NCBI GenBank assembly: GCA_001778095.1
Contig: MFGA01000020.1
Span: 75,805-139,804 of the forward strand
Reading direction: 5' to 3'
Length of the DNA stretch: 64,000 nucleotides
From: Candidatus Falkowbacteria bacterium RIFOXYA2_FULL_38_12
GTDB taxonomy: Bacteria > Patescibacteriota > Patescibacteriia > XYB2-FULL-38-15
Position numbers and translations under genes: made by a program. The notes under the pieces were generated by a model that made no database searches, was not told where the DNA came from, and saw only the letters and a program-made list of their open reading frames with translations. This document shows, one piece after another, positions 8,586-60,106 of this stretch; position 1 is the first letter of the stretch; the number at the start of each line of letters is the position of its first letter.

Positions 8586-8624
8586 AAGTTTCCACCTCTG
8601 CCAAGGCTGCGGTGGGCAAGAAAA

Positions 8625-8700: not shown

Positions 8701-8704
8701 ATCT

Positions 8705-27612: not shown

Positions 27613-27687
27613 CTGTCATTCCCGCGAAGGCGGGAATCCACTCGCAATTATTTTAAAGTAGATTCCCGCCTTCGCGGGAATGACAAA
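27613..27687. repeat. twin GC hairpins with identical stems and complementary loops
   Basis: GTCATTCCCGC-gaag-GCGGGAATC and its exact reverse complement GATTCCCGC-cttc-GCGGGAATGAC, 21 nt apart. Overlaps the first annotated codons of tgt. Confidence 0.6.
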
Positions 27688-33203: not shown

Positions 33204-33270
33204 GTTAAAGGTTAAAAGTGAAAAATGAAAAGTTGCAACTTCTCACTTTTAACTTTTCATTTTTCACTTT
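33203..33270. repeat. AAAGTGAAAA/GTTAAAAGT palindromic element
   Basis: gttaaaggttaaaagtgaaaaatgaaaagtt + gcaa + cttctcacttttaacttttcatttttcacttt (near-perfect hairpin). Confidence 0.75.
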
Positions 33271-33272
33271 AT

Positions 33273-34349
33273 ATGTATTTTCTCGCGTTCATTGCCGCGT
33301 TTTTATTGGCAGTTTTTTTTACTTATTTCGTCCGGAAAATTGCGTTTAGATTTAATGTTGTGGACACGCCGGGCGGAGAAAGGAAAATTCACAAAAAGCC
33401 AATTCCGCTTTTGGGCGGTTTGGCGATTTTTTTGTCGTTTTTTTTAGTTCTCGGTTTTTTTCTTTTTTTCACGGATAAAATTTTAGCCGGACAAATTTTA
33501 GCAAAACATTTTCTCGGCATTTTTATCGGCGGTGTTTTTTTAATGATTGGCGGAGTTCTGGATGACAAGTACAATTTAAGGGCAAGGTGGCAGCTCGTTT
33601 GGCCGATCCTTGCGGCGATAGCGGTAATTGTGAGTGGTATTGGGGTAAACTATGTTACGAACCCCTTTGGGGGCCTAGTACAGCTTGATAGCTTAAAATT
33701 TGTTCTTTTTAATTTTGACGGGGTTCCCTATAAAATAACTTTGTTGTCCGATGTTTTTACTTTTCTTTGGCTAATGGGAATGATGTATACGACAAAACTT
33801 TTGGACGGACTTGATGGGCTTGTCTCGGGCGTGACCACAATCGGCGCGGTTATTATTTGTTTTGTCAGTTTGATGTCAGAAGTTTCCCAGCCGGAAACGG
33901 CTATTTTGGCCATCGCCTTAGCCGGAGCCTTTGCCGGTTTTTTGATTTGGAATTTCAACCCCGCAAAAATTTTTCTGGGAGAAAGCGGGAGTATTTTTGC
34001 CGGATTTATGCTGGGATCTTTATCTATCATCGCCGGCGGTAAAATTGCCACAACGCTTTTAATTATGGGTTTGCCAATTATAGATGTTTTGATTGTTATT
34101 ATCCAAAGATTATTCAAGTCAAAAAAGATTTTCGCGGCGGATAAAAGGCATCTCCATTTTAGACTCCTTGAAGCCGGTCTAACTCAAAGGCAAGTCGTTC
34201 TAGTTCTTTATGGTATTACTTTTATTTTTGGAATTTCCACGCTAGTTTTAAAAACAGAAGGAAAGATTTTTGCTTTGGGCGCATTGTTTTTACTGGCGAT
34301 AGTTTTGACAGTTGTTTTGTTGAAGAGAAATAAAGAGGGCTTAGAATAA
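33273..34349 (+). CDS. glycosyltransferase family 4 polyprenyl-phosphate HexNAc-1-phosphate transferase (WecA/MraY family)
   Basis: VVDTPGGERKIHKKPIPLLGG (WecA-like) and multiple TM helices. The ORF-table start at 33225 translates the palindromic element and was rejected. Confidence 0.75.
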   Translation: MYFLAFIAAFLLAVFFTYFVRKIAFRFNVVDTPGGERKIHKKPIPLLGGLAIFLSFFLVLGFFLFFTDKILAGQILAKHFLGIFIGGVFLMIGGVLDDKYNLRARWQLVWPILAAIAVIVSGIGVNYVTNPFGGLVQLDSLKFVLFNFDGVPYKITLLSDVFTFLWLMGMMYTTKLLDGLDGLVSGVTTIGAVIICFVSLMSEVSQPETAILAIALAGAFAGFLIWNFNPAKIFLGESGSIFAGFMLGSLSIIAGGKIATTLLIMGLPIIDVLIVIIQRLFKSKKIFAADKRHLHFRLLEAGLTQRQVVLVLYGITFIFGISTLVLKTEGKIFALGALFLLAIVLTVVLLKRNKEGLE

Positions 34350-34989: not shown

Positions 34990-35080
34990 TGTTTCCCCTC
35001 CCTTGATGGGAGGGGCTAGGGGAGGGTGGTCGTATAAATTCACCCCCACCTAACCTCCCCCATCGAGGGGGAGGAAATTT
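34990..35080. repeat. paired GC-rich hairpin element (CCCCTCCC-loop-GGGAGGGG family)
   Basis: CCCCTCCC-ttgat-GGGAGGGG, a middle GGTGG/CCACC stem, then CCTCCCCC-atcga-GGGGGAGG. Confidence 0.65.
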
Positions 35081-38588: not shown

Positions 38589-38665
38589 GGACGATTAGCT
38601 CAGTTGGTTAGAGCGTTCGATTCACATTCGAAAGGTCGGAGGTTCGAATCCTCCATCGTCCACCA
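38589..38665 (+). tRNA. tRNA-Val (anticodon CAC)
   Basis: Cloverleaf: acceptor GGACGAT/ATCGTCC, D-arm GCTC..GAGC, anticodon stem TTCGA/TCGAA with loop TTCACAT, T-arm GGAGG-TTCGAAT-CCTCC, encoded CCA. Confidence 0.8.
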
Positions 38666-38668
38666 GAC

Positions 38669-38775
38669 GAAGTTAAAAGTGAGAAGTGAAAAATTAAAAG
38701 TTGTTGATGATCTGCCCTTAACTTTAAATTTTGAACTGTAACTTTTCACTTTGCATTTTTAACTTTTAATTTATT
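38669..38775. repeat. AAAGTGAAAA/GTTAAAAGT palindromic element
   Basis: agttaaaagtgagaagtgaaaaattaaaagtt ... acttttcactttgcatttttaacttttaattt. Lies between the tRNA and the lepB ATG. Confidence 0.7.
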
Positions 38776-39426
38776 ATGTCATACAACAATTCTGAACCCG
38801 GTCTTGAAAATTTTGGCGGACAGGATGAAGAAAAAAAAATCGTTGAAGAGGAATTAAAAAAGCCGAGTACGTTACGTTATGTTGCCGACTATGTTTTAGA
38901 GTTTGCCAAAATCGTAGTCCTTTCATTGGCAATTATTATTCCGGTTAGATATTTTTTGATTCAGCCTTTTTATGTAAAGGGCGCGTCCATGGAACCCAAT
39001 TTTTTTGACCATGAATATTTAATCATCAACGAAATTAGCTATCGCTTTGAAACGCCGGAAAGAGGGGATATTATCGTTTTTAAATATCCTCACGACCCCA
39101 GTCAATATTTTATAAAAAGAGTAATTGGTTTACCGAATGAAACAGTAGAGATTAAGGATAACAAAATTACGATTTACAACAAAGATAATCCAAACGGCAT
39201 TGCCCTTGATGAAAAATATTTGGAAGACACTGTTCAGACTTTTGGCAACAAGACTCTTGCTCTCGGGGTTGATGAATATTTTGCCCTGGGAGACAACCGG
39301 ACAGCCAGCTATGATTCCAGAAGTTTTGGAGCGGTAAATAAAAGTTTCATTGTTGGAAAAGTTTGGGTGCGAGGTTGGCCGTTTAACAAGATTAAAGTTT
39401 TTGAAACGCCGGAATATAATTTTTAA
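38776..39426 (+). CDS. lepB: signal peptidase I
   Basis: S26 family. Ser box GASMEPN, Lys box KRVIGLPNETVE, GDNR motif. Confidence 0.85.
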   Translation: MSYNNSEPGLENFGGQDEEKKIVEEELKKPSTLRYVADYVLEFAKIVVLSLAIIIPVRYFLIQPFYVKGASMEPNFFDHEYLIINEISYRFETPERGDIIVFKYPHDPSQYFIKRVIGLPNETVEIKDNKITIYNKDNPNGIALDEKYLEDTVQTFGNKTLALGVDEYFALGDNRTASYDSRSFGAVNKSFIVGKVWVRGWPFNKIKVFETPEYNF

Positions 39427-40870: not shown

Positions 40871-40905
40871 CAAGCTAATAAAAAATATAATATATAGACC
40901 CCCCG

Positions 40906-41064
40906 AACAATAATCCTTTCTACTGCAACTTGTAATTTTGTCTACAAATTTTCTAAAGCTCCTCCGCTTATCCTGCGGATAAACATCGTCGCTTTATCCC
41001 CGCCATGGGCGGGGCGCTCAAAATTACTGCGTTTCGTAACAAAAGATTATTATTCAGTGGGTCT
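40906..41064 (+). repeat. ~160-nt structured repeat, copy 2
   Basis: Shares ctttctactgcaact.gtaatttt ... ccgcttatcc...ggataaacatc ... aaaattactgcgtttcgtaac with copies 1 and 3. Has its own terminal inverted repeat. Confidence 0.8.
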
Positions 41065-41974: not shown

Positions 41975-42068
41975 ATTTTAAAGTTAAAAGTGCAAAGTAA
42001 AAAATTAAAAGTTACAATTCAAAGTTAAAAGTTGTTAGCAGTTAATTTTAAACTTTTCACCTTTAGGC
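41975..42068. repeat. AAAGTGAAAA/GTTAAAAGT element
   Basis: aaagttaaaagtgcaaagtaaaaaattaaaagttacaattcaaagttaaaagtt ... aaacttttcaccttt, ending 2 nt before the ATG. Confidence 0.65.
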
Positions 42069-42069
42069 G

Positions 42070-43980
42070 ATGTTTAAAAAAAAGACAGCCTTAAAGTTTT
42101 TATTAGCCCTAGTTTTACTTGTGGGAGGTTTTTTGTTTGTCCAAAATGTTTTCGCTCAAGATATTGCCGGCATGGACATTGTGAACGAAAATATCGCTTT
42201 GTCCGCCGATGACCCAAGAATTATCGCCGCAAGGATTATTAGAATAGCTTTGGGATTTTTAGGAATAATAGCCGTCTGCATAGTCTTGTATGGAGGTTTT
42301 TTATGGATGACTTCAGCCGGCAATGAAGAAACTATTGGTAAGGCAAAAAAAGTTTTGATCAATGGATTGATCGGTTTGATCATAATTTTAATGGCTTTTG
42401 GCATTACCCAATTTGTTTTAAATTCTCTGCTTGGCAGGGTCGGGGGAGGAGCCGGCGGGGGAGGCGGGTCACCATTAATCGGGCGATATAGCGGAGCCTT
42501 GGGTAATGGAATTATTGAGAGTCATTATCCGCCACGCGGAGGGACGGGAATTCCACGTAATACAAAAATTATCGTGACATTCAAGGAAAAAATGTTACTT
42601 GAGTCTTTGGTTAACAATTATAATGATAACGGAACGCCGGACAATATTGCGGATGATGTGGTTACTAAAAATGACAATGGCACGCCCGGCAATCCAGCAG
42701 ATGATTGGATGGAAATCAATAGCGAGAATGTTAGAATCTTTAAATCAAGCGAAGGAGAACTTGGCACGGAGCGAGTCCCGAACTATTTATCATCAAGCCA
42801 GGTAAGGGTTTCCTTTACGGCTGATCTGAAAAATTTTGTTTTTGATCCGATTCCACTGCTTGGTAGTCCGACGGAAAATATTTGGTATACAACAGCCTTA
42901 AAGCCGGGCATAGAAAAATCAAACGGCGACAATGCTTTTGCCGGAGCTTTCCGTGACGGATATGCTTGGGATTTTGAAGTGAGCACGATTATTGACGTAA
43001 CTCCGCCACAAGTAGTCAGCGTTATTCCAAGAAAAGATTCTGTAAATCCGCGCAATATAAAAGTGCAAATAAATTTTAATGAAGCAATGGATCCGACAAC
43101 TGTTTCCGGAAGTACTTTTGGCGAGGAGGCTTTAAGATTTAATAATGTTTTAACCACTGATGCTCTTGATCGCGAGGTTGCCGGAACGTGGAGTATTGGT
43201 AATCAATATAAAACAATAGAATTTGTAACTAATGACAAGTGTGGGACAAATTCTTGTGGAGGCGATGTTTATTGTCTTCCGGGAGATGAAACAATCAGCG
43301 TTCTGGCCATTGCCGCAAGATTAGGGAGTAGTCCGCCGGAGGCCGAGATGCCTTATGACGGTATTGTTGATGTTTGCGGTAATTCTTTGGATGGAAATAG
43401 CAACGGCCGAGCCGAAGGACAGTCTCTGGAAGGGAGAAGCGCTATTGGTGGAGATAATTATTCATGGCTTTTTAAAACAAACGACACTATTGATTTAGTT
43501 CCGCCAACAATCAGCGCGGTTACTCCAATGCCGGAAACTGAAAGCGTGGCTTTCGCCGTTCCGGTAGAATTAACCTTTTCAAAATTAATGAGTATTACGA
43601 GTTTTACAACCAGCAATATTTCCTTTCAGGATAATCAACGCGATGAATGCGCGGTTTGGTTTTTTCTGGATGGCGACAATTTACAAGCGGACGGAGCTCC
43701 GGTTAGGGGATCTGATGATATCGCCATACGCACAAAAGCGAGAGTCAGTCATGAAAACTTATTGCCGACAGGTGGAGTTTGTTCTGACGATAGACCGGTA
43801 GAAGGACCGTTAGCAATGGATGGCGAGGGTTCATTGGTTTATTATTTTCCAGTTGCCAATTCGGATGTTCAAGATTTGTTTCAAAATTGTTTTTATAGAC
43901 CCATCGGACCGGCCGATGGTCAGACTTGCGTTGTTGGAAGAGATGGAAATTTGCCAGCTGACTGCGAGCCATGGAGATAA
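42070..43980 (+). CDS. secreted surface protein with VirB2/TrbC-pilin-like N-terminal anchor and Big_5-type Ig-like domains
   Basis: Signal peptide, then two hydrophobic helices separated by a short charged loop, then a poly-Gly linker. Repeated D.TPP.V....P........I...F.E.MDP.TV Ig-like modules. Confidence 0.6.
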   Translation: MFKKKTALKFLLALVLLVGGFLFVQNVFAQDIAGMDIVNENIALSADDPRIIAARIIRIALGFLGIIAVCIVLYGGFLWMTSAGNEETIGKAKKVLINGLIGLIIILMAFGITQFVLNSLLGRVGGGAGGGGGSPLIGRYSGALGNGIIESHYPPRGGTGIPRNTKIIVTFKEKMLLESLVNNYNDNGTPDNIADDVVTKNDNGTPGNPADDWMEINSENVRIFKSSEGELGTERVPNYLSSSQVRVSFTADLKNFVFDPIPLLGSPTENIWYTTALKPGIEKSNGDNAFAGAFRDGYAWDFEVSTIIDVTPPQVVSVIPRKDSVNPRNIKVQINFNEAMDPTTVSGSTFGEEALRFNNVLTTDALDREVAGTWSIGNQYKTIEFVTNDKCGTNSCGGDVYCLPGDETISVLAIAARLGSSPPEAEMPYDGIVDVCGNSLDGNSNGRAEGQSLEGRSAIGGDNYSWLFKTNDTIDLVPPTISAVTPMPETESVAFAVPVELTFSKLMSITSFTTSNISFQDNQRDECAVWFFLDGDNLQADGAPVRGSDDIAIRTKARVSHENLLPTGGVCSDDRPVEGPLAMDGEGSLVYYFPVANSDVQDLFQNCFYRPIGPADGQTCVVGRDGNLPADCEPWR

Positions 43981-44075
43981 AGTGAAAGGTTAAAAGTGAA
44001 AGATGAAAAATTAACGAGTTTTCAACTTTCAACTTTTAACTGTAACTTTACACTTTTCATTTTTCACTTTTAATT
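43981..44075. repeat. AAAGTGAAAA/GTTAAAAGT palindromic element
   Basis: agtgaaaggttaaaagtgaaagatgaaaaatt ... aacttttaactgtaactttacacttttcatttttcacttttaattt. Confidence 0.7.
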
Positions 44076-44079
44076 TACG

Positions 44080-47000
44080 TTGATGCTAAGCAAAAAGACA
44101 GCTCTAAAATTTACACTATCCCTCATCGTACTTATGGGAAGTCTTTTGTTTGTCCAAACGGTTTTTGCGCAAGATTTTGGGACTGATGTTGTCGGCGAAA
44201 ATATTGCTCTAGTGGATGCCGGTGATCCCAGAGTTGTCGCCGCAAGGATTATCAGAATAGCTTTGGGATTTTTGGGAATTATTGCTGTTTGCATAGTTTT
44301 GTATGGAGGCTTTTTATGGATGACTTCAGCCGGCAACGAAGAGACTCTTGGTAAGGCAAAAAAGGTTTTAACCAGCGGTTTGATCGGACTTATCATTATT
44401 TTAATGGCTTTTGGTATTACTCAATTTGTTTTGAGTAGATTGACAGAGGCAACAGGGGTTGATGGCGGAGGGGGTGGCGGAGGCGGCGGAGGGGGTGGCG
44501 GAGGCTTGCCTTCTGACGCTTTTTTAGTAAGAAGCATTCAGCCAAATGGCGCTATTCCCATTCGTAATGTCATTGTCAGAGTTCTTTTTAATAAAAACGT
44601 AAATGCAGATAGTCTAAGAGTGGCGGGAAATTTTGTAGTGCGTCGGGTTTCCGACAACACGCCAGTAGAAGGAATAATAAATCTAAATGGTAATCTTGCG
44701 GAATTTGTTCCCAATGCCGATTGTCCCGAACCAAATGCTGATAGAAAATGTTTTGATAGTGATACTGAATTTAGAGTGGAATTAGCTACTGGGATAAGAA
44801 GCGAGACTGGAAAGAGTTTGATGTGTGGAGGATTGGCTCCGTCTTGTCGTGGAACTTTCACAACTGGAAATTTGGTTGATGTTACCGGCCCCGAGGTTGA
44901 TGTTACTTTTCCTGATGATGGTCAGCCGGTGAGTGCCGACGCGATTATAAGTATTGAAGCGCATGCGATTGACGATGCGGGAATTTCTTATTTGGATTAT
45001 TTTGTTAATAACAACCTTTTGGGTCGGGACGCTCCGGAGGGGCCGACTGTTCGAGATTATTTTTCGGCTACCGATTGGGATACAACCGGAATAGCCTCGG
45101 GGACAAAATATAAATTAAAGGCCACAGCTTTTGATATTGATTCAAACAATACAAACTCAAACGGCGTAGGGGTGATTGTTAGAGCTGCGCATTGTTTTAA
45201 TGCGTTTAAAGATCTTGATGAGATCCAAGTTGATTGTGGCGGAGTTGATTGCGGTTTATGTGACGGCGGAGCTTGTGTTAATGATGATGAGTGTCGTAGT
45301 GGAATTTGTTTAAACGGAATTTGTCGGAGCTTGCCGGTTATCGCTAGGGTTGCTCCCAGCGATGGCGCAGTAGGAAATTTTATAACAATATTTGGCGAGC
45401 ATTTTGGCAATGTTCACGGTTCGGTTTATTTTCAGGATCACATCGAAGGCAATTTGCCGAGAGGTTGTGTAGTTGGAGACGTTTGGCAGGATAGACAAAT
45501 TATCGTTGAGGTCCCGGCAGGAGCATTGGACGGGCCGATTTCCGTTGTTATTCCTCCACCGGACGGAGCGCTAGCTTCAGACTATACGGACAGGACGAAT
45601 GATGAACGAGGTCCGTTGTTGCCTGATTTTGACGTGAATGAAATTGAACGTCCGGGAATTTGCGCAATTAATCCGAAAGAAGGAGAACCAAAAGCTGAAG
45701 TGAGGGTTTTGGGAACTCATTTTGGTGACCAGCAGGGAGACAGTTTGATTAATTTTGGAGGGACAAGAGCCGAAAGAATTTTGGATTGGGGAGAATCAAG
45801 TATTAGGGCAACAGTTCCCTTGATAGCCCCGGCGGTTGTTCCCGTTCAAGTAGTAAAAGATGAAGAAAATAGCAATCCTATTAATTTTACCGTTCTTCAA
45901 TCTGCCGCGACTCCAAAAATTTTAAGTTTCTCTCCGACAAAAGGGCCGGAAGGGGAATATATAACCATTTTAGGTTCAAGTTTCGGCGACACTCCCGGTA
46001 AAGTTGATTTTGTTGCGCCGGACGGAACAATTTATTTGGCGGCAACTGATTTTCCGGAGGTCTGCGGAGCTAATTGGTGGAAAGATGACGCAGTGATTAT
46101 TAAAATACCGAAAGAAGCAAGGATTATTCTTCCCGGGCCAAAATATACTTTAAAATTAACGGCAAATAGCGGCCTTGTTGATGATACTTCGGATTTAACA
46201 CCGGCAACTCTCGAAATTATTGGCGGGGCGCCAAAACCGGGAATTTGTCGTATTTTTCCGGACAACGGACCGGCTGGTCTTGAGGTTGCAATTGATGGGG
46301 AAAGATTGGGGTTGAGAGGAATTTTAAATTTTTGGAGAAATAAGGTTGCTCTAACAAATTCGTGGAAAGTGGATCAGGTTGTTGGAGTCGTGCCAGTCGG
46401 ATCAGAAACCGGGCCAATCAATGTTTCGGTCGGCGATAATTTAAGCAATAATGTAAATTTTAACGTTCGCGATTGTCGCGACGCGAGAACGCCATGCGGA
46501 GAAGGAGAAGAATGTTGTCGGGATGGATCATGTCGAGCGGATGGAGAATGCGCGGAAGCGCCGGGTAGCGGACATTATTTTTGGCGTTTTTCCACCGGTG
46601 AGCTACCAATAAATCCCAGAGTGGTGGAATATTGCGGTCCGGCTGATGAACCAAGAAGATTAAACCCGTCACCTTCACCTTGGAATAAAAGAGAAGGTGG
46701 AAACAATGTTTGCATTAATGCCAGGATCACGGCCAGATTTAATGTAAAAATGAACAATGAATCATTGACAACACATGGGAATATTGTTGTGGAAGAATGT
46801 GCCGGTCCTGACGCGGAAAATCCTTGTCTTGAAAAAAGAGTAGTTGAGGGAGAAATTAATCCTTTAGTTGTAAATGATGCTCTTTTACCAAGAGGAATTG
46901 GATCAGATTCATTTGAGTTTGTTTTGCCAGCGGGCATTCTATTTGAACAAAATAAAGTTTATCAAGTTACTTTAAAAGGTGGTTCATTTGAAGATCCCGG

Positions 47001-50000
47001 ACTTGCAAGTGTTGCCGGGTTGCTTTTAGACGGAGATAAAGACGGAGAAGAGGGTGGAGATTATATTTTTGAATTTAAAACAAGGAATACTGATGAGTTG
47101 TGCGAAATAGGTTCAATCGGAATCATGCCTCCAATCGCAACACTGACTGAACAATGGATAGAAGATGAAGAAATTGTCGGATCAGAATTGGAGTATACCG
47201 GTTTGTGCTATGCAGAGGGGGATATATGTTTAACTCTAAATTGTAGAAACTATGATTGGAGATGGAAATCATCTGACGATCCGTTAAATCCAAAGGTTTC
47301 ATTGCTGGAAGTGGAAGATGATGAAGGCGAAGTGATTGAAGAGAAGGCACTTGTCAGGGCAGTAGCGGAGACAGATATAAACCCCGCGACTGGTCTAAGT
47401 CAACCAGTAATAATAACTGGCGCGATCCCAGTTGAAAGAAAGTCTGGAGAGGGAGATTTAACTATTAGTTTTACAGATCCAAAAGTAATTGAAAAATGGC
47501 CTGATTGTCGAGAGGCCTGCAAGAATTCGGAAGTAGGCGTTAAATTTAATACATGGATGGATGAAGAAATTGCCGGCGATCCTCAAAATATAAAGTTATA
47601 TATCTGGCGTTGCGGTAATAGTGTTATTGATCATGGCGAAGATTGTGATGACGGAAATATTGTTTCCGGCGATGGTTGCAGTAGTAGTTGTCTAAATGAG
47701 GGAACAAAACTTTGTCTCGAATTTGATCCGGCCGTCAGAGAAGTATCGGTCGAGGATTCTTGTTGCGGAAATGGACGGCGCGATCCGGGCGAAGATTGCG
47801 ATGGTAATCCTTTTCCGGCGAATTGCCGAGTAGATGGATTGGCTGACAATTGTCTTAATGAAGGAACGGCTGTGATCGGCGACGGTGGAAGTTGTGGTAA
47901 TAGTATAGTTGAAGAAGGTGAAGATTGCGATCCGCCGGATCTTGCTTTGCCACCGGGAAGTCGTGGGTGTAGCGTGGAATGTTTGAATCAAGGGACTTCC
48001 GGACTATTTCCGGCGCCCGGAGGTATTGTCGGAGTTTTACCTCGATATTCTTCAGTAAGCCTAAGCGAAGGGAAATGGGAACACAAACTGAATTTTGATT
48101 TTCCTGTCGGTTTTTCTCTTCTTCCTAATACTTGGTATAGGGCGGTAGTTTCGGGAGCTCAAAAAAGCGTTAGCGGAGTTGCTCTCACGGAATTGAATTA
48201 TGACGATATACCTGACGAAAGACATTCTTTAGATTCATATTCTTGGGCGTTTAGAACCAAAAGCGATGATTCTTTATGCGCTGTTGATAAAATTGAAGTG
48301 AGCCCGAGGGAAGCGCGGGTTAGATTTATTGGAGCAAAAGTTGATTTTAGGTCAATGCCTTTTGGCGCGCCGGATGAATGTAGCCCTAATGGCCAGAAAT
48401 TGAGAGCGATGAGCTATCCTTGGGTTTGGAATTCAACAGTAGAGGAAGTGGGAACTCTTCCGGCTCCTCGTTCCGATAGATTCCCCGGTTGTGGCAATGG
48501 TGTTGTGGAATTTGGTGAAGATTGCGACGATGGAAATATACTTCCGGGTGATGGTTGCGCCGGGCCGGGAGATAACGCCTGCTTAAATGAGGGTGAGAGC
48601 GCGTGCGCCTTTGGAGAAGGTATGTGTATAGTAGATAAACGTTGTATTTGGAATGAAGCTGATGGAGGAAGATGTATTAAAAAAACTATCTGCGGAAATA
48701 GAGCAGTAGAGATAGGCGAAGATTGCGATGATGGAGATAGAGATTCGGGAGACGGATGCAATAATAAATGTTTGAATGAGGGGTCAGTCGCCGGAGGATC
48801 TGTCTGTGGAGATATGAAGATTGGTATTGGTGAAGACTGCGATGACGGAAATACTCGATCGGGAGATGGATGCAGTAATCTTTGTTTGAATGAAGGGACT
48901 ATTCTTGACAGAAGAATTGATCCTCTGCAAACAGTAACGGCAAAGGGGCTAAGAGTTGATCATGCTCGCGAGGACACTACGGCAATAAGCGCTGAAACAG
49001 ATGGAAAAAAAGGTGAGGGCAATTTTACTTTAGCTTGCAGTTATAATCTACCGGACAATCCTTGCCCGGAAGACGACGAAAGGGGTGATATTTATGGAAT
49101 TGGTAATAATTCTTGCTGTTATCCAAAGCCAATTATTGAAACCTGTAATCCGTCAGGCGCGGCTATTTGTTCCAATAAACCGGAAGGGGAAGCGGTTTGT
49201 CGCAATTCTTTAATCTCAATAACTTTTGATAAAGAAATGGATCCGGCCTCACTGGAAGAAAATATTATTGTCGCTGGCAATTATAATGTTTGCCCGGAAG
49301 GAACGATTGACGTTGGTAATGGCGATATCAGACTTCGTGAATTTATAAATTGGTGCGCGGTAACGGGAGGAATTACCGTTAGTCAAATTGTTCCGGAAGA
49401 AGGCGAAAAAAAGACAAGAGTTGATTTTAATTTATCCAAACTTTTGGATCCGAGCATAAAATATAAAGTTATTGTTCGCGGGAATAATTTATTGACTCGA
49501 GATAGAGTAGAGGGAGCAAGGAGTATTAACGGAGTGGAGCTGGGAGAGACTAATTTTACTTTTAGAGAAGGGGAGGCGAGTTATCAAAGCAGGAGCTGGA
49601 CTTTTTGGACAAACGATCAAATTTGCGCCCTGTCTTCAGTTAAAATAAATCCCGAAAGTCATCTTTTTACCAGCAGTTTGGATCCGGAAAATCGGGCTGA
49701 TTTTATAGCAACCGCCTTGGATGCAAGAAATAATCCTATTTCGTCAATTCCCGGATCTTATTCTTGGAGATGGGATTGGACTTCAAGTTATATTGACATA
49801 GCCGCTCTTTCTCTTTGCGCTGATCCAAACGGATGTAGCACAAGAACCGTGACGGCGCAAAATCAAAACGGAGAATCATTAATTTCCGCCAAAGCGACGA
49901 TAACAGCAGATGAAGAAGTCCCGGGCGCAAGAGGTCAAAGCAAGTTTGGCATTTCCAATGTCGCTGTTTTTCTTTGCGAAAATCCTTGGCCAACAGCGGC

Positions 50001-53000
50001 AACAATAAGAGAGGACGGAGGATATCTTGATCGTAATTATAATTTCAAATTTTACTATTGCCGAGACAAAGGGGAATTTTTGCCTGACGATGATCTACCC
50101 TGTTTTCCCTCGGCGGAAGTGGGCGGAGCGATTGCCGTAAGGGATACCGAGAGAATCGGCGTATTAAGAGAAGATGGTTTGTTGAGAGAATATTTATTTA
50201 CGTTTCCGGGAACATTTTATTGTAGTGTTTCACAAACTTTATGCGATCCTGCCGCCCTTCCTGACGCTCTGGGTTTCTGTCCTGCCGGAACCGGAGATTG
50301 CCGACCGGCCCCGGATGCCATTGGTATTAGAATTTACGAAAACGTTAATCATCTAACTCCGACCGAATGGTATGGAAAGCAAGGATTAGCTGTGGGAAGT
50401 CCGGAGACAATTAATATTGACGGCTATGAAGCAATACGAGATGGTCGGACAGTCTATATTTCGGCGGCCAATGACACGATGGGTCCGGACACTCTTTATA
50501 CAAATATTTATTTGGTCTCTTATAACGACGGAGCTAATTCGGATACAATAAATATCTATAATCAGATAATACAAAATTTAAAATTTAATACTAATTTGAG
50601 AAATGCGGATCTGCGGGCATGTCTTTACAGGGCTTGCAGTAATAATGCCAGCAAAAGTTGCAATATGGATGCAGACTGTCGCGCGGAGCCTGACGTTACT
50701 TCAACTTGTTTGCCTTTATCTTATTGCACTAAAGATATGGATTGTCCGCCGGCGGTTCCGGTTGCGGGAACAATTAACGAATGTCAAGCGCCAAAAGATA
50801 AATTAACCAGAGACATGAGGAGGATTATTGACCTTAATAATCTAAAAAGAGTAATAGATTCTTATAAAACTGTTCATGGAAGCTATCCAAAACTGGAAGC
50901 GGGAACTTATATCAGATCATTGGTCTCCAGCGTTTGGGGTTCTTGGATCGGGGCGTTGGGCAAAGACTTAGGCGCATCATTACCCGTTGATCCGATCAAC
51001 AAAATTGTTAATTGCGAGGGGGCGGGTTTTGATAAGGAAACATGTTGGAATCTAGAATCAAAAACGTATCAATGTCCGGCCGGTTCGCATGTTTATCAAT
51101 ATAAAGTGAACGGAGACGGGACATATAAATTAAAGAGTGATTTTGAGTATAGGGCAAACGATCGCCTCGTTGATCTAAAAACGCTATGGGTAGGAAATTT
51201 ATCTAATGTGTTTGAAATACAAGGATCTTGCGATGGCGCTCCCATAAGAAGCACCGGCGTTTGCGGAGATGGAAATATAGACGGTCCCGAGGAATGCGAG
51301 CCGAGAGCTAATCCCCCGCGAGACAGGGCGTGTACACTTGAGATTGATGGAGAAGAAGTGGCTGGCAGACAAAGAGAAGAGTGTAACCCAGCTGACTGCA
51401 CTTGGCGCGAGCTAGGTGGCTGTTCGGTTCTCTGTGGGGATGGCATTCGCCAAGTGGGTGAAGAATGTGACGAAGGGCCTCTGGGCGGACGAATAGCTGG
51501 TGGAGGAATGTCTCCGGAAAATCAGTATTTTTGTACTAGAGAATGTGAAATGATGGGAGGTTATTGTGGTGATGGAGGAGAACCACAGGTAGCTTATGGA
51601 GAAAGATGCGATAATGGAGTTTCTTGCACGTTAAGGTTGCCTTGTGCAAGTGTGGATGGATGTGTCTGTGGATCTTGTATAGTTCCTAGGGGAAAGAAAA
51701 GCTGTGGAAATGGATCTTACGGATTGAGCGTTAGTGGAGAACCTTGGTGCAAAACAGATTGTTCGGGCTTCGGTCCATATTGCGGAGATGAGGTTGTAAA
51801 TGGAGCTGAACAATGTGATGGAGATTCTATTACTTCAAAAGGAATTTGTGTTCCAGAAGGAATACCAGAACTAAACGATGTGGATACGGTTCTTGGAAGT
51901 TATACCTCATGTAACAACAATGAAGATTGTTCGGACGGTACTTGTGTTATTTGTGATAATTCTAGAGAAGGTTATTCTCAATCAAGAACGAAAAACTGTG
52001 GAGAGTTGGGGGTACCAGGGTTAGCTCTTCTATGTGACTGGAATAGATGGGGCGCTTGCGAGACGGCAGGTACTTGCGGAAATGGGACAAAAGAAGGGGA
52101 CGAGGAATGTGATGATGGAAATGAAAATAATAATGATGGTTGTATTATCACCTTGGAAAATTCTCCATCGGGTCCTGATAATTGCAAACTAGCTCGTTGT
52201 GGAGATGGATTTACTAAGATTGGTGCAGAAGCCTGTGACGTCGGCGTAGGCAATGGCAGGATTTGCAGGGCAAACTATGGTGAAAATTGTAATTATTGCG
52301 ATGTTAATTGCGCTATAAAAGTTATTACCGGACCTCGTTGCGGAGATGGAATAATAAATGGAAGAGAGACATGCGATGATCGAGCGGGAACTAGTTTGTT
52401 ATATAAAATAATTGAGGAACAAAAATATTTTGCTGATAATCGTGGCGATAGTTTAGGAGTAGTTGTTCCCGTGAGTATGGATTCGGCCTGCTCAATAGAC
52501 AGCGCTCTTCCGGGCATAGATGGTTCCTGCCCGGGGCAACCGCCAACAGGAGCACTGAAATTTAATCGGGCGGTTTGTTCAGCGGATTGCGCTTCAACTT
52601 GTCCCCCGGCTTATAAAATACAAACATTAACCTTTGGTCCGGAAGGACGAAGTTCAATTGAATTAGGAAGTAACGAGGAGGTCTCAGTTAATCTTCCCGC
52701 TTGTCGTGTTTTGGGTGACATTAAAGTTGATGTTGATTTGAGTAATGTTACTCAAACTCCGTTGAATGTGGTTTTTGTGACGGATAGATCGGGGAGTATG
52801 GGGTGGGGAACAACATCAAGTTCTGGACCAAATCTTTCTTGCAGTGAAGACAGAACGAGGATGGGTTGTGCTAGAGATGCGCTTACGGAAGCAATAAATT
52901 TATTATTTGATAGTTATGAAAATATTCGCATTGGCTTGGTAAGTTATGGTAATAATGTCCCGGTTGGTGCATGGCATGACTTGCTGGGTTTTTTAGGGAA

Positions 53001-53658
53001 AGACATATTAATTTCCGCAGTTGGTTCCTATACTCCGACTTTAGGTGCTACTAACATTTCCGCTGGGGTAAAGAAGGCAAAAGATATATTAAACAATGAA
53101 GATGGTAAAAAAATAATTGTTTTAATGAGTGATGGAGAAGCGACGAGACCTCATGAAACCCCAGCGCTAAGAGCAGTTTATCCTGCTTGTGATAGATATA
53201 GTAGAGACGATTTTGCCGCATGCGTTGCAGGAGAAGAGGTTAGATTGGCTAAAGGTAGAGATATAGAAATTTACACAATTTTATTTTATGGTCCCACATC
53301 CGCAGAAGCTAATATGGAGAGTTGGGCAAGTTCTCCCACGGAGCCTTACGCTAACATAAGCGCTCCCGATAATGACTTGGATGAAATTTATCGTTCTATT
53401 ATAGCCTCTCTAACATCCTCAAGTATAAATTTAAATTTACAAGAAACCGGAGGTGTGCGAGGGGGTGCAGAGATACCTCTTTTAAGAAGTATCTTTTGTA
53501 AGGAAGAAGAACAAACAGATATTCCCTTTAGTATAGATTTTGGCGGGATAGGCAAGGCGCGTGTAAGTAATCTAAAAGCTTATATATGCCCTGGCCCGCC
53601 GTATCCACCCGAAGATCTTTGGGAATGTGTCGGAGACTCTTGCGATGTGAGTCTATAG
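44080..53658 (+). CDS. giant (3192 aa) cell-surface protein: pilin-like N-terminal anchor, poly-Gly linker, IPT/TIG and Ig-like domains, ~12 cysteine-rich (GEDCDDGN...GDGC) repeats, embedded pseudopilin-like segment, C-terminal vWA domain
   Basis: N-terminal 125 aa ~85-90% identical to the 42070 protein. Four IPT-like modules (ITIFGEHFG, VRVLGTHFG, ITILGSSFG, VAIDGERLG). Repeats CGN..GEDCDDGN...GDGC..C of the Myxococcus-type cysteine-rich repeat. vWA MIDAS VVFVTDRSGSM and IIVLMSDGEAT. Confidence 0.7.
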   Translation: MMLSKKTALKFTLSLIVLMGSLLFVQTVFAQDFGTDVVGENIALVDAGDPRVVAARIIRIALGFLGIIAVCIVLYGGFLWMTSAGNEETLGKAKKVLTSGLIGLIIILMAFGITQFVLSRLTEATGVDGGGGGGGGGGGGGGLPSDAFLVRSIQPNGAIPIRNVIVRVLFNKNVNADSLRVAGNFVVRRVSDNTPVEGIINLNGNLAEFVPNADCPEPNADRKCFDSDTEFRVELATGIRSETGKSLMCGGLAPSCRGTFTTGNLVDVTGPEVDVTFPDDGQPVSADAIISIEAHAIDDAGISYLDYFVNNNLLGRDAPEGPTVRDYFSATDWDTTGIASGTKYKLKATAFDIDSNNTNSNGVGVIVRAAHCFNAFKDLDEIQVDCGGVDCGLCDGGACVNDDECRSGICLNGICRSLPVIARVAPSDGAVGNFITIFGEHFGNVHGSVYFQDHIEGNLPRGCVVGDVWQDRQIIVEVPAGALDGPISVVIPPPDGALASDYTDRTNDERGPLLPDFDVNEIERPGICAINPKEGEPKAEVRVLGTHFGDQQGDSLINFGGTRAERILDWGESSIRATVPLIAPAVVPVQVVKDEENSNPINFTVLQSAATPKILSFSPTKGPEGEYITILGSSFGDTPGKVDFVAPDGTIYLAATDFPEVCGANWWKDDAVIIKIPKEARIILPGPKYTLKLTANSGLVDDTSDLTPATLEIIGGAPKPGICRIFPDNGPAGLEVAIDGERLGLRGILNFWRNKVALTNSWKVDQVVGVVPVGSETGPINVSVGDNLSNNVNFNVRDCRDARTPCGEGEECCRDGSCRADGECAEAPGSGHYFWRFSTGELPINPRVVEYCGPADEPRRLNPSPSPWNKREGGNNVCINARITARFNVKMNNESLTTHGNIVVEECAGPDAENPCLEKRVVEGEINPLVVNDALLPRGIGSDSFEFVLPAGILFEQNKVYQVTLKGGSFEDPGLASVAGLLLDGDKDGEEGGDYIFEFKTRNTDELCEIGSIGIMPPIATLTEQWIEDEEIVGSELEYTGLCYAEGDICLTLNCRNYDWRWKSSDDPLNPKVSLLEVEDDEGEVIEEKALVRAVAETDINPATGLSQPVIITGAIPVERKSGEGDLTISFTDPKVIEKWPDCREACKNSEVGVKFNTWMDEEIAGDPQNIKLYIWRCGNSVIDHGEDCDDGNIVSGDGCSSSCLNEGTKLCLEFDPAVREVSVEDSCCGNGRRDPGEDCDGNPFPANCRVDGLADNCLNEGTAVIGDGGSCGNSIVEEGEDCDPPDLALPPGSRGCSVECLNQGTSGLFPAPGGIVGVLPRYSSVSLSEGKWEHKLNFDFPVGFSLLPNTWYRAVVSGAQKSVSGVALTELNYDDIPDERHSLDSYSWAFRTKSDDSLCAVDKIEVSPREARVRFIGAKVDFRSMPFGAPDECSPNGQKLRAMSYPWVWNSTVEEVGTLPAPRSDRFPGCGNGVVEFGEDCDDGNILPGDGCAGPGDNACLNEGESACAFGEGMCIVDKRCIWNEADGGRCIKKTICGNRAVEIGEDCDDGDRDSGDGCNNKCLNEGSVAGGSVCGDMKIGIGEDCDDGNTRSGDGCSNLCLNEGTILDRRIDPLQTVTAKGLRVDHAREDTTAISAETDGKKGEGNFTLACSYNLPDNPCPEDDERGDIYGIGNNSCCYPKPIIETCNPSGAAICSNKPEGEAVCRNSLISITFDKEMDPASLEENIIVAGNYNVCPEGTIDVGNGDIRLREFINWCAVTGGITVSQIVPEEGEKKTRVDFNLSKLLDPSIKYKVIVRGNNLLTRDRVEGARSINGVELGETNFTFREGEASYQSRSWTFWTNDQICALSSVKINPESHLFTSSLDPENRADFIATALDARNNPISSIPGSYSWRWDWTSSYIDIAALSLCADPNGCSTRTVTAQNQNGESLISAKATITADEEVPGARGQSKFGISNVAVFLCENPWPTAATIREDGGYLDRNYNFKFYYCRDKGEFLPDDDLPCFPSAEVGGAIAVRDTERIGVLREDGLLREYLFTFPGTFYCSVSQTLCDPAALPDALGFCPAGTGDCRPAPDAIGIRIYENVNHLTPTEWYGKQGLAVGSPETINIDGYEAIRDGRTVYISAANDTMGPDTLYTNIYLVSYNDGANSDTINIYNQIIQNLKFNTNLRNADLRACLYRACSNNASKSCNMDADCRAEPDVTSTCLPLSYCTKDMDCPPAVPVAGTINECQAPKDKLTRDMRRIIDLNNLKRVIDSYKTVHGSYPKLEAGTYIRSLVSSVWGSWIGALGKDLGASLPVDPINKIVNCEGAGFDKETCWNLESKTYQCPAGSHVYQYKVNGDGTYKLKSDFEYRANDRLVDLKTLWVGNLSNVFEIQGSCDGAPIRSTGVCGDGNIDGPEECEPRANPPRDRACTLEIDGEEVAGRQREECNPADCTWRELGGCSVLCGDGIRQVGEECDEGPLGGRIAGGGMSPENQYFCTRECEMMGGYCGDGGEPQVAYGERCDNGVSCTLRLPCASVDGCVCGSCIVPRGKKSCGNGSYGLSVSGEPWCKTDCSGFGPYCGDEVVNGAEQCDGDSITSKGICVPEGIPELNDVDTVLGSYTSCNNNEDCSDGTCVICDNSREGYSQSRTKNCGELGVPGLALLCDWNRWGACETAGTCGNGTKEGDEECDDGNENNNDGCIITLENSPSGPDNCKLARCGDGFTKIGAEACDVGVGNGRICRANYGENCNYCDVNCAIKVITGPRCGDGIINGRETCDDRAGTSLLYKIIEEQKYFADNRGDSLGVVVPVSMDSACSIDSALPGIDGSCPGQPPTGALKFNRAVCSADCASTCPPAYKIQTLTFGPEGRSSIELGSNEEVSVNLPACRVLGDIKVDVDLSNVTQTPLNVVFVTDRSGSMGWGTTSSSGPNLSCSEDRTRMGCARDALTEAINLLFDSYENIRIGLVSYGNNVPVGAWHDLLGFLGKDILISAVGSYTPTLGATNISAGVKKAKDILNNEDGKKIIVLMSDGEATRPHETPALRAVYPACDRYSRDDFAACVAGEEVRLAKGRDIEIYTILFYGPTSAEANMESWASSPTEPYANISAPDNDLDEIYRSIIASLTSSSINLNLQETGGVRGGAEIPLLRSIFCKEEEQTDIPFSIDFGGIGKARVSNLKAYICPGPPYPPEDLWECVGDSCDVSL
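44464..44505 (+). repeat. perfect 21-bp tandem duplication encoding a poly-Gly linker
   Basis: ggcggagggggtggcggaggc x2, inside the giant gene (15-residue Gly run). Confidence 0.8.
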
Positions 53659-54495: not shown

Positions 54496-54570
54496 ACTAA
54501 GAGGAAAAAGGCAACTTTAAACTTTTAATTGTAACTTTTCACTTCTCATTTTTAACCTTTAACTTAATAC
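54496..54570. repeat. AAAGTGAAAA/GTTAAAAGT element (reverse-arm words only)
   Basis: ggcaactttaaacttttaattgtaacttttcacttctcatttttaacctttaactt, ending 8 nt before the ATG. Confidence 0.6.
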
Positions 54571-55311: not shown

Positions 55312-55390
55312 CCTCCCCTTTGACAGGGGAGGCGAGGAGGGGATGATTATTCAAGTCACCCTCCCCTAACCCCTCCCGTCAAGGGAGGGG
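55312..55390. repeat. paired GC-rich hairpin element (CCCCTCCC-loop-GGGAGGGG family)
   Basis: CCTCCCC-tttgaca-GGGGAGG and CCCCTCCC-gtcaa-GGGAGGGG. Same family as 34990..35080. Confidence 0.65.
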
Positions 55391-55433
55391 AACACTGCTA
55401 ATCTGCTTATAGACTTATTAGCTAAATTTAAAT

Positions 55434-57302: not shown

Positions 57303-57361
57303 AGACTAATCTCTGATAAAATTTTGAATAATTTGTCAAAATTTTTTTAATATCTTATAAT

Positions 57362-57520
57362 AGACCTGTCGCATAACAATTCTTTCTACTGCAACTGGTA
57401 ATTTTGGCTAAAAATTTACAAAAGCTCTTCCGCTTATCCTATGGATAAACATCATCGCTTTTCTAAATTTATCCTAAAATTACTGCGTTTCGTAACGAAA
57501 AATTGTTATACGACAGGTCT
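57362..57520 (+). repeat. ~160-nt structured repeat, copy 3
   Basis: Terminal inverted repeat AGACCTGTCGCATAACAATT / AATTGTTATACGACAGGTCT. Internal sequence ~90% identical to copy 2. Confidence 0.8.
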
Positions 57521-57552
57521 AATAATAAAACTTAATTTCGGAAGGTTCTAAT

Positions 57553-58791
57553 ATGAGGAGTGAAATAATAACAGGTTTAGACCTTGGGTCAACTACCACT
57601 AGAGTAGTGGTTGCCCAAAGAGATGAAAACGGCTTGCCTAGAATTATTGCTGCTGTGGAAACCCCGTCGGAAGGTATCTCTAAAGGGGCGATTTCAAGCG
57701 TTGAAGATGTGACATCAAGCATTGCTGCCGCTTTTGAAACGGCAGAAAGAATTACGGGAGTTCCTCTTGAAAAAGTTTGGGTAGGTGTTTCCGGCGGTCA
57801 TATAATTTTTCAAAAAAGCAAGGGAGTTGTTGCCGTTGCTAGGATAAATGGAGAAATAGACGAAGGGGATGTGGAGCGGGTGATAGAAGCCTCTAGAACG
57901 GTCGCTTGTCCTCCTAATTTTGAAGTATTGCATGTTATTCCAAGATCATTTTCCATTGATAATCAAACAAATATCAAGGATCCTATTGGAATGAGCGGAG
58001 TAAGGCTTGAGGTTGAAACTCAAATTATTCAAGGAATGGGGACGCATCTTAAAAATCTAACCAAATGTATTTATAGAACAGGTGTTGACATTGAAGACGC
58101 AGTTCTTTCCATTTTGGCGGCCTCTGAAGCTGTCTGCACTCCTCACCAAAAAGAGCTTGGAGTGGCAGTGGTCAATATTGGTCGTTCTTCAACCGAAGTG
58201 GCTGTTTTTGAAGGGGGAGATCTTATTCATATCGGATTTTTGCCTATTGGCGGAGAATTTATTACTTCCGATATTGCGATCGGCTTGAGAACATCTCTAG
58301 AAGCGGCGGAAAAAATAAAATTGGAATACGGCACAGCTTCATCCAAAGATATGAACAAAAAAGACGAAATCAATCTGGGTGATTTTGATCCTACTGAAAA
58401 TACTTTGGTTTCCAAAAAATATATTTCCGAAATTATAGAAGCTCGCGTTGAGGAAATTTTTGAAAAAGTTGACGAAGAATTAAAACGTATTGATCGAAGC
58501 GGTCTTTTACCTTCAGGGGTCATCTTGATTGGCTCTACGGCGAAACTGCCGGGGATTATTGAAGTGGCGAAAAGAAAGTTAAGATTACCGGTTGCTCTCG
58601 GATTCCCCAAAAAGATTATCAGCGTGATTGATAAAGTAAACGATATCTCTTTTGTTCCGGCCTTGGGATTGGCTCTTTGGGGAAATGCGGTCTATGATGA
58701 TAGGGGAGGGAGAAGTTTTCTTTCTAGATTTAAAGGAGTCGGACGGATTACGGATAAGATAAAAAAAATGTTTAAATCATTGATGCCGTAG
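57553..58791 (+). CDS. ftsA: cell division protein FtsA
   Basis: Actin-fold phosphate 1 motif GLDLGSTTTRVVV. 412 aa. Immediately upstream of ftsZ. Confidence 0.85.
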   Translation: MRSEIITGLDLGSTTTRVVVAQRDENGLPRIIAAVETPSEGISKGAISSVEDVTSSIAAAFETAERITGVPLEKVWVGVSGGHIIFQKSKGVVAVARINGEIDEGDVERVIEASRTVACPPNFEVLHVIPRSFSIDNQTNIKDPIGMSGVRLEVETQIIQGMGTHLKNLTKCIYRTGVDIEDAVLSILAASEAVCTPHQKELGVAVVNIGRSSTEVAVFEGGDLIHIGFLPIGGEFITSDIAIGLRTSLEAAEKIKLEYGTASSKDMNKKDEINLGDFDPTENTLVSKKYISEIIEARVEEIFEKVDEELKRIDRSGLLPSGVILIGSTAKLPGIIEVAKRKLRLPVALGFPKKIISVIDKVNDISFVPALGLALWGNAVYDDRGGRSFLSRFKGVGRITDKIKKMFKSLMP

Positions 58792-58876: not shown

Positions 58877-60106
58877 ATGCCAGAAATAAAACCAGAGATT
58901 GAAACGTTTGCCAAGATTAAAGTGATTGGCGTTGGTGGAGCGGGAGGATCGGCGATAAACAGGATGGTAAAGTCAAAAATCAAAGGAGTTGAATTTATAG
59001 TTGCCAATACTGATGTTCAGGCGCTTCATTATTCAGAAGCCCCGGTCAGGTTGCATGTAGGAAAAACGGTAACTAGGGGGTTGGGGGCAGGGATGGATCC
59101 GGAGATTGGTAAAAAGGCGGCCGAAGAAAGCCAAAATGAAATCAGAGACATTTTAAAGGGAGCAGACATGGTTTTTGTTACTTGCGGATTGGGTGGAGGA
59201 ACGGGAACAGGCGCTGCGCCGATTATTGCCCAAATCGCTCGGGATTTGGGAGCGTTAACGGTTGGAGTGGTTACCAGACCATTTGCTTTCGAAGGGGCAC
59301 AGAGGCGAATCAACGCAGATAGAGGATTGGAAGAAATGGAAGGGAAAGTAGATACTCTGATTACTATACCCAATGACAGATTACTTCAGATAATTGATAA
59401 AAAAACCACTCTGCTTGATGCTTTTACAACATGCGATGAGGTATTAAAAAGTGGTGTCCAAGGTATTTCGGAATTAATTACCATACCCGGGTTGATCAAC
59501 GTTGATTTTGCCGACGTTAAGGCGATCATGAAAGACGCCGGATCGGCGATGATGGGCTTGGGCGAGGCAAGTGGTGAAAAACGAGGCGAGGAAGCAGCTA
59601 AAATAGCCATATCAAGCCCATTACTTGAACAATCAATAGAAGGAGCCAGGGGTATACTTTTTACTGTTACTGGCGGGCCGGGATTGGGAATGCATGAAGT
59701 GGCTGAAGCGGCGAAAATTATCACTGGATCAGCGGATCCGGACGCAAAAGTTATTTTCGGAGCTGTCATTAATGAAAACATGAAGGATGCGATAAGGATA
59801 ACAGTTATTGCTACCGGATTTAATGACAGAAAAAAAGCGGTAAGCGATGTGGAAAGTCCGGCTCGTCGCAGTTTTAACCCCAACCCTTTAGTTTCCGATA
59901 AACGTAAAGAGATAGATTGGAGTTCGTCCGGACAATTTCAAAAAAGACCGGTGAAAAAGATAGCTCATTTTGGAGATACGGAAGACAGTGGAATGGAAAT
60001 GGATGACAGTAATAAAAATCAGAATATAAAAAAGGCGATTGATGAAAAAGGAGGAGAGGGAGAGGATTTGGATATCCCCGCTTTTCTAAGAAAAAAAATA
60101 ATGTAA
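58877..60106 (+). CDS. ftsZ: cell division protein FtsZ
   Basis: Tubulin signature GGGTGTG. N-terminal [11 protein letters not shown]7 loop NVDFAD. Confidence 0.95.

Follow-up and report, generated by a model that had tools for sequence, protein, structure and literature searches.

The window, the whole 64,000-nucleotide stretch of DNA analyzed here, carries nearly all of its genes on the + strand and shows a strongly positive GC skew. FtsA homologues place it in CPR/Patescibacteria, with the nearest named Falkowbacteria at 76% identity, and a 3.2-kb stretch of it is 100% identical to GCA_001780335.1, contig MFGQ01000019.1. In the gap between a diacylglycerol-kinase gene and ftsA lies the third of three copies of a structured repeat element. 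Copy 3 spans positions 57362–57520 on the + strand (159 bp, AGACC...GGTCT), reads AGACCTGTCG...CGACAGGTCT, and makes up most of the present ftsA 5′ leader; the ftsA start codon (ATG, 57553) is 32 nt downstream of it, and ftsZ begins at 58877. The features of the locus are as follows.

57333–57361, + strand: ftsA promoter, not part of the element; -35 TTGTCA (57333–57338), 17-nt spacer, -10 TATAAT (57356–57361); conserved in element-free relatives
57359–57361: target-site duplication AAT, left copy, which is also the last 3 nt of the -10 hexamer
57362–57381, + strand: left terminal inverted repeat, 5′ arm of outer stem P1, AGACCTGTCGCATAACAATT; 19 of 20 positions complementary to 57501–57520, the stem covarying across copies
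57383–57394, + strand: left half of the conserved asymmetric core, TTTCTACTGCAA; its motif R covaries with Y of the right half
57395–57487, + strand: inner stems and apical domain, including the segment between AGTAATTTT-type repeats that is inverted in other family copies
57488–57500, + strand: right half of the conserved asymmetric core, TTTCGTAACGAAA, from family conservation
57501–57520, + strand: right terminal inverted repeat, 3′ arm of P1, AATTGTTATACGACAGGTCT, from complementarity and covariation
57521–57523: target-site duplication AAT, right copy
57540–57545, + strand: ftsA Shine–Dalgarno sequence GGAAGG, outside the element
57553–58791, + strand: ftsA
58877–60106, + strand: ftsZ

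The presence of a structured repeat at exactly 57362–57520, as originally predicted, was confirmed. Copy 3 is predicted to fold into a single long hairpin of -54.3 kcal/mol on the + strand (z = -11.2) and of -69.8 kcal/mol on the - strand (z = -13.0), and none of 200 shuffled sequences was as stable. Two details of the original prediction had to be corrected: the terminal stem, described as a perfect 20 bp, is complementary at 19 of 20 positions, with one C·A mismatch at position 11, and the core identity to copy 2, given as approximately 90%, is 78% over aligned bases and 84% over the longest ungapped 102 nt. Copy 3 is nearer to copy 1 (87% identity) than to copy 2, and its description as the best preserved copy holds in one respect, namely its perfect 3-bp target duplication. 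Its flanking sequences are CTTATAAT and AATAAAACTT.

The two other copies in the window are located as follows.

6862–7025, - strand: copy 1, 164 bp, between a SIMPL/DUF541 gene and gpmI; perfect ATT/ATT target duplication
40896–41064, + strand: copy 2, 169 bp, between hisS and rpsU; degenerate duplication TAT/AAA and a nested GC-rich hairpin (40998–41014)

Two conserved blocks, AAAATTACTGCGTTTCGTAAC and CTTTCTACTGCAACTNGTAATTTTG (21 and 25 nt), each occur exactly three times in the window, against 0.00 expected from 100 shuffles. Every copy forms one long hairpin that is far more stable than shuffled sequence, and the ORFs of at least 40 amino acids overlapping copies 1 and 2 are short, without any match, and on the non-coding side.

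Several unrelated features of the window were also recorded. AT-rich palindromes built from AAGTTAAAAGTGAAAA / TTTTCACTTTTAACTT units stand at gene ends (4471–4552, 8620–8705, 25960–26015, 33201–33283, 38664–38776, 41980–42034, 43980–44091, and 54512–54569); they form a second repeat family, unrelated to the element, and may be bidirectional terminators or another small repeat element. Small, perfect, GC-rich hairpins (e.g. TGTCATTCCCGCGAAGGCGGGAATCC..., TTCCCCTCCCTTGATGGGAGGGG, and CCCCGCCATGGGCGGGG) stand out in this AT-rich genome, at 27614–27685, at 34993–35028 and 55357–55392, at 40998–41014 (in copy 2), and, in a related sequence, at approximately L022:9816–9846 (in its copy); the two that are nested in element loops resemble a still smaller insertion element. 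Cofactor-independent phosphoglycerate mutase is encoded by tandem paralogues (7038–8585 and 8705–10279) with repeated DNA segments that are 73–74% identical. A 636-amino acid Big_5 protein (42070–43980) is followed by a 3192-amino acid ORF with many Cys-rich CGDG/CGNG repeats (44080–53658); the N-terminal regions of the two are similar (DNA 77–87% identical over 98 and 215 nt), and by sequence both look like the giant surface proteins common in CPR genomes. The sole Rfam or ARAGORN matches in the window were a ribosomal protein L10 leader (20341–20473; RF00557, 47 bits, gathering threshold 44) and a tRNA-Val(CAC) (38589–38665).

The position of copy 3 had suggested that it might carry the division-gene promoter. 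A + strand scan found no promoter-like site within copy 3; the only such site near it, TTGTCA-17-TATAAT, matches the consensus at 11 of 12 positions and ends where the element begins. The ftsA upstream region was compared across seven lineages.

Window: promoter TTGTCA-17-TATAAT; element in the ftsA leader, directly after the -10 box
L021 (FtsA 96%): TTGTCA-17-TATAAT; no element in the ftsA leader
L022/L023 (FtsA 88%): TTGTCA-17-TATAAT; element present, 16 nt further downstream
L143/L144 (FtsA 85%): TTGTCA-17-TATAAT; no element in the ftsA leader
L145 (FtsA 77%): TTGCAA form; no element in the ftsA leader
L146 (FtsA 76%): TTGCAA form; no element in the ftsA leader
L024/L025 (FtsA 76%): TTGCCA form; no element in the ftsA leader

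Relatives with this upstream region minus the element, which the original prediction had itself set against the promoter idea, were thus found, and that idea is refuted: the promoter lies upstream of the element and is kept in relatives that lack it. One of these, L146, is a Falkowbacteria genome in which the element is present elsewhere. At the native site of L143/L144, TATAATAATAAAACTTAA, there is a single AAT, whereas the window reads TATAAT, then the element, then AATAATAAAACTTAAT; the one additional AAT indicates a 3-bp target duplication at copy 3. The copy in L022/L023 lies at a different position and contains an extra nested GC hairpin, and so represents an independent insertion. Judged from these comparisons, the ftsAZ promoter is unremarkable and predates the repeat, which was inserted recently, and copy 3 is best read as a non-autonomous transposon (MITE) that entered the ftsA 5′ leader after a pre-existing promoter, not as a promoter module. 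The insertion occurred at the AAT that ends the -10 hexamer. This result removes a tempting misreading of the repeat.

The same comparison bears on whether the element specifically serves ftsAZ expression, either as a cis-regulatory leader or as an invertible switch. The element does lie between the ftsA promoter and the Shine–Dalgarno sequence, a second lineage has a copy in its ftsA leader, and two family members have an inverted apical domain (L014 versus L019, and L055; see below). However, the element is absent from the closest relatives with the same promoter, it occurs beside many unrelated genes and in both orientations, its invertible part has no promoter, and no invertase gene was found nearby. 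With the empty sites largely refuting it, a dedicated ftsAZ switch is scarcely credible.

The breadth of the family was examined with two sequence patterns. The exact 21-mer matched 20 metagenome loci and gave no match in GTDB species genomes or viral contigs. A degenerate pattern, TTTCTRCTGCAA-N85–115-TTTCGNNACGAAA, was built from the parts most conserved in diverged copies and matched at least 117 stretches in GTDB species genomes, where a rough estimate gives approximately 4 by chance. Matches within the CPR came from Falkow-, Kerfeld-, Yanofsky-, Azam-, Moran-, Uhr-, Sung-, Magasanik-, Doudna-, Peregrini-, Portnoy-, Lipton-, and Brennerbacteria and from Saccharibacteria. Others came from MAGs labeled Flavobacteriaceae, Saprospirales, Marinilabiliaceae, Omnitrophota, Bdellovibrionales, Verrucomicrobia, Magnetococcales, and Gammaproteobacteria, and some of these labels may reflect errors in binning. 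The six Flavobacteriaceae copies group as a separate subfamily and lie in unrelated gene contexts, so that the element is dispersed there too; a single-copy RNA gene with conserved synteny was considered for the Bacteroidota copies and rejected, no conserved synteny being found. Viral contigs searched with both patterns gave no matches and hence no sign of phage carriage. Rfam 15 returned nothing relevant for the window at the gathering threshold, for copy 3 at E values up to 10, or for 15 non-CPR loci: copy 3 gave just chance-level miRNA matches (E 0.04–0.08, far below gathering), and the 6S, 6S-Flavo, and Flavo-1 models had no match, including at the Bacteroidota and Omnitrophota copies. No description of the family was found in the searched literature on CPR/Patescibacteria with MITEs or structured RNAs. 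The family is very widespread, has an unusually well-defined structure, and is apparently uncatalogued.

Direct repeats flanking the copies were counted by terminus class and compared with shuffled flanks.

AGACC-type termini (AGAC...GTCT): 3-bp repeat in 19 of 56 copies; 5.6–5.9 expected; reached by 0 of 300 shuffles
GGGNCTG-type (G-type) termini: 5-bp repeat in 7 of 21 copies; 0.27 expected; reached by 0 of 300 shuffles
GAGATGG-type (GAG-type) termini: 3-bp repeat in 6 of 12 copies; 1.28 expected; reached by 0 of 300 shuffles

The perfect repeats of the AGACC class were TAT (8), ATT (7), AAT (3), and AAA (1), and 37 of the 56 copies had at most one mismatch; in the GGGNCTG class, a 6-bp repeat was seen in three additional copies. 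A perfect duplication is present in only approximately one-third of copies. Left flanks are AT-rich and have no other fixed motif in common. Empty sites were informative as well. In L021, the gene upstream of ybeY has a related copy at its end, which alters the C terminus and provides a new stop codon; the window is empty at this site. The left duplication copy there has mutated from AAT to AGT, and an initial reading of this empty site as lacking a target duplication, and hence as the mark of a Y1/single-stranded DNA element, was dropped because flank statistics show a 3-bp duplication. In L020, a copy lies just after the rplU promoter, and the window has a short, empty rplU leader. The suggestion that outer stems derive from a pre-existing hairpin in the target was also rejected, as empty sites have no such palindrome.

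A preference for promoter regions, as raised in the original prediction, is borne out in part. Independent insertions into the ftsA leader occurred in two lineages (the window and L022), and another copy lies just downstream of the rplU promoter in L020. Copies also lie between convergent and between co-directional genes. The simplest cause of the promoter-region insertions is the preference for AT-rich triplets (AAT, TAT, ATT), which are present in -10 boxes. Flanking genes were oriented ++ in 37 cases, -- in 22, -+ in 20, and +- in 15, and both element orientations occur. Neighbors include rpsU, gpmI, rplU, infA/rpmJ, ybeY, tRNAs, and many unrelated genes; no recurrent neighbor gene was linked to the element, the largest neighbor cluster comprising 6 of 117 among the matches listed. 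A riboswitch or gene-specific leader was rejected on these grounds, with unrelated neighbors and all four orientation classes represented.

The termini of the element offer a stop codon (TAG) and an AGG-type ribosome-binding motif. In approximately one-quarter of 114 copies, the start codon of a long ORF lies within ~5 nt of the element end, typically as ...RAGGTCT-t-ATG. At the other end, the stop codon of the upstream gene is in many copies at or inside the element, the TAG being composed of a flanking T and the AG of the element; copy 1 is an example, where the TAG stop of the upstream gene (6861–6863) arises at the element end. These two motifs would make insertions into tight operons tolerable. 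Copies are found at a density of approximately 1 per 12–20 kb, with three in the 64-kb window and five in ~58 kb of contig Ga0208246_1000109, and they occupy gaps between essential genes (ftsA, ribosomal proteins, infA/rpmJ, tRNAs). The very small genomes of CPR/Patescibacteria are commonly portrayed as containing little mobile DNA. In a MAG labeled Bdellovibrionales (L054:4325–4675), an element copy lies between two tRNA genes on the same strand.

MITEs are defined as elements of 50–800 bp with terminal inverted repeats of at least 10–15 bp, target-site duplications of 2–10 bp, and no transposase (PMC11602168). The family has copies of 159–169 bp with no transposase ORF, 20-nt inverted termini, and short duplications, and it shows many dispersed copies and empty sites; by that definition, these features taken together mark it as a MITE. 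On these sequence features, we consider it highly probable that copy 3 represents one insertion of a non-autonomous DNA transposon of ~160 bp. The element would be moved in trans by a transposase encoded elsewhere, and the footprints suggest that this enzyme makes a staggered cut in the target. Whether as a cruciform or as a single strand that has folded, the rod probably draws the two ends together or is itself the recognition target of the enzyme. No transposase or recombinase domain was detected in 40 window ORFs, and no autonomous IS with the same ends was found in the window or in the 1.15 Mb examined. The 1.15 Mb likewise contained no ORF-bearing version of the element, no inverted-repeat pairs 0.6–3.5 kb apart, and no unpaired half-elements. 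The tips of the element appear to resemble IS26/IS903-type ends (GGnnCTGTTGCAAA). Counting against a plain MITE reading, the length of the duplication varies with terminus class (3 versus 5–6 bp).

The predicted rod was assessed by covariation over 67 diverse copies. In the consensus structure, 89.7% of cells were paired, compared with 70.3% in shuffles, and the covariation score was 0.517, compared with 0.180; none of 500 shuffles reached either value, and slid-partner controls gave at most 54.5% pairing. The outer stem was 87.5% paired, and double compensatory changes were seen in 31 of 39 pairs. Even within the near-invariant asymmetric core common to family copies (TTTCTRCTGCAA ... TTTCGNNACGAAA), the R in the left motif and the Y in the right one change together (A-U 39, G-C 17); the arms are therefore base-paired to one another over the full length of the rod. 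A local UUUCG-NNA-CGAAA hairpin in the right arm was disfavored, as its first loop base is the one that covaries with the left-motif R. Conservation peaks in this asymmetric subterminal core, and the tips vary, with at least three terminus classes that differ in duplication length. A typical MITE shows the opposite pattern of conservation, and the arrangement seen here hints that the element does more than bind a transposase.

The two strands of the element are not equivalent. The complement of the TTTCTRCTGCAA-bearing strand folds 11–18 kcal/mol better, and has 2–3 times more G·U pairs, across the four main context classes. This bias holds for co-directional flanking genes of either sense and equally for divergent and convergent ones, so it is intrinsic to the element and not imposed by neighboring transcription; selection at the RNA level on the strand transcribed from neighbors was rejected because the G·U/A·C bias does not flip with context. 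The bias points to a single-stranded form of the better-folding strand, either single-stranded DNA or RNA, and asymmetry that is independent of context is unexpected for a purely double-stranded cut-and-paste element. One-sided G·U changes are rare relative to double changes, and this scarcity fits pairing at the DNA level at least as well as pairing in RNA.

The apical domain can be inverted. At the same infA-rpmJ locus, with flanks 98.8% identical, L014:1517–1684 and L019:831–998 differ by a 72-nt center that is an exact reverse complement, bounded by AGTAATTTT and AAAATTACT. A second, independent tip inversion is seen in a Falkowbacteria genome (L055:310–477), with breakpoints in its own inner stem; the breakpoints of the inversions fall within the 9–13-bp inner stem. 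Among ~58 classifiable copies, the orientation of the apical domain relative to the core was the usual one in 56 and inverted in 2, so the polarity of the tip matters. Rather than a switch, the inversions may be accidental products of recombination, or of template switching from one hairpin arm to the other. A short, 1.1-kb contig that ends just past the repeat (L003:1–1121) combines the left half of the L009/L015 copy with the right half and flank of the L014/L019 copy. It reflects either recombination between two element copies or chimeric assembly across a shared 33-nt arm, and it was set aside as evidence of inter-copy recombination because the assembly may be chimeric.

These structural results raise the question of whether a structured non-coding RNA is the real functional unit (for example, a protein-binding or 6S-like rod with a conserved internal bubble), for which mobility is secondary and the MITE ends are a mere vehicle. 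The near-invariance of the core across phyla, the three or more terminus classes with differing duplication lengths, the compensatory double changes at most pairs, the 56 to 2 retention of tip orientation relative to the core, and the better folding of one strand whatever the context all speak for it. On the other hand, neither strand has an Rfam match, 6S models included, and no conserved promoter or terminator was found. One-sided G·U changes are rare relative to double changes, and A·C and G·U cells are both common, an unusual pattern for an RNA family. With respect to flanking genes, the strand that folds better lies more often in antisense than in sense, and copies are gained and lost between close relatives. 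We therefore regard a primarily RNA-based unit as improbable.

A Y1 (HUH) transposase such as a RAYT that moves the element in the form of a folded single strand of DNA, in the manner of REPINs or IS200/IS605-type elements, could also account for the long hairpin and its conserved arm motifs, variable spacer, and compensatory changes, as well as for the intrinsic strand asymmetry. A PF01797 Y1_Tnp gene is moreover present in the close relative L021. Y1 transposition is not known to leave a target duplication, however, and duplications are significantly enriched at the element. The hairpins on either side of the L021 gene are of another kind (GGACAGTCC), the element being absent there, and no Y1 gene was found in the window by tblastn or by a domain search of 40 ORFs. 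A REP-like local palindrome exists in one arm only, and covariation favors arm-to-arm pairing over a local hairpin. Taken together, Y1-mediated movement is very unlikely. The L021 gene itself (L021:147–749) encodes a 200-amino acid RAYT/IS200-like protein upstream of a TSP3-repeat gene; it is absent at the syntenic place in the window, and the GGACAGTCC hairpin motif also occurs in L012 and L013.

A broader reading, which we offer tentatively and hold to be distinctly less probable than not, keeps the MITE behavior and adds to it. The family could be an uncatalogued, cross-phylum class of mobile structured modules, in which the core, covariation, strand bias, and flippable tip reflect a functional single-stranded form (RNA or single-stranded DNA) bound by a conserved protein, and in which the terminus and duplication classes (3 versus 5–6 bp) are interchangeable vehicles around the same cargo. 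If the core has a function of its own, the family would constitute a new and widespread class of structured nucleic acid. If it has none, the family still marks strain-level variation, assembly errors, and "conserved intergenic structure" in CPR annotation.

Among known systems, Correia/CREE (Neisseria), ERIC/IRU (enterobacteria), RUP (pneumococcus), and bcr1 (Bacillus cereus) are bacterial MITEs of ~100–170 bp that form long hairpins and are co-transcribed with their neighbors. They have in common with the element its size, terminal inverted repeats, short duplication, and lack of an ORF, as well as numerous intergenic copies, variable presence among strains, and formation of a strong hairpin upon transcription. 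None of them is known outside one genus or family, whereas the element spans many CPR phyla and MAGs labeled Bacteroidota, Omnitrophota, and others. It also differs from standard MITEs in that an asymmetric subterminal core is conserved best, and in its whole-length covariation, strand bias, and recurrent tip inversion.

REPINs are roughly 80–110 bp and go with a single-copy RAYT gene that has the repeats on both sides. They carry compensatory changes and a hairpin-forming spacer between conserved REP ends, and like the element they have two conserved inverted arms, a variable spacer, a hairpin, and dispersed intergenic copies (PMC3116915). The element is unlike them in having target duplications, a length of ~160 bp, no flanking RAYT found, and arms that are not two copies of one REP palindrome. 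IS200/IS605-derived PATEs resemble it in their implied strand-specific folded form and lack of an ORF. PATEs are not known to leave a duplication; they insert on the 3′ side of a fixed tetra- or pentanucleotide, and each of their ends forms its own hairpin. The element, in contrast, has duplications, no fixed insertion motif, and arms that pair with each other. As in invertible switches (fimS, Bacteroides invertons), one locus shows both orientations of a segment that short inverted repeats enclose, but no internal promoter was found, there is no invertase nearby, and inversion is rare (2 of ~58 classifiable copies). The rod of ~160–190 nt with a closing stem, an asymmetric bubble of ~12 by 13 nt, and an apical stem recalls 6S RNA; the element differs from it in having no Rfam 6S match, multiple copies, target duplications, polymorphism between relatives, and no promoter of its own.

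At ftsA, a model of the transcript can be proposed. Transcription from the resident promoter would start ~7 nt into the element, and the ftsAZ mRNA would open with a hairpin of ~150 nt (approximately -50 kcal/mol), with the Shine–Dalgarno sequence and AUG 20–32 nt downstream, outside the rod. The predicted leader fold places this hairpin at the very 5′ end. As 5′-terminal stem-loops protect bacterial mRNAs from 5′-end-dependent decay, altered mRNA stability or processing would be the likeliest effect of copy 3 on ftsAZ, rather than control of the promoter. Modulation of ftsAZ expression by the element, also proposed in the original prediction, is plausible. In the same fold, codons 9–11 of ftsA (GLD of the conserved actin-fold motif; 57577–57584), which read TTAGACCT, pair with the complementary right terminus of the element, AGGTCTAA (57515–57522); this complementarity is probably a coincidence.
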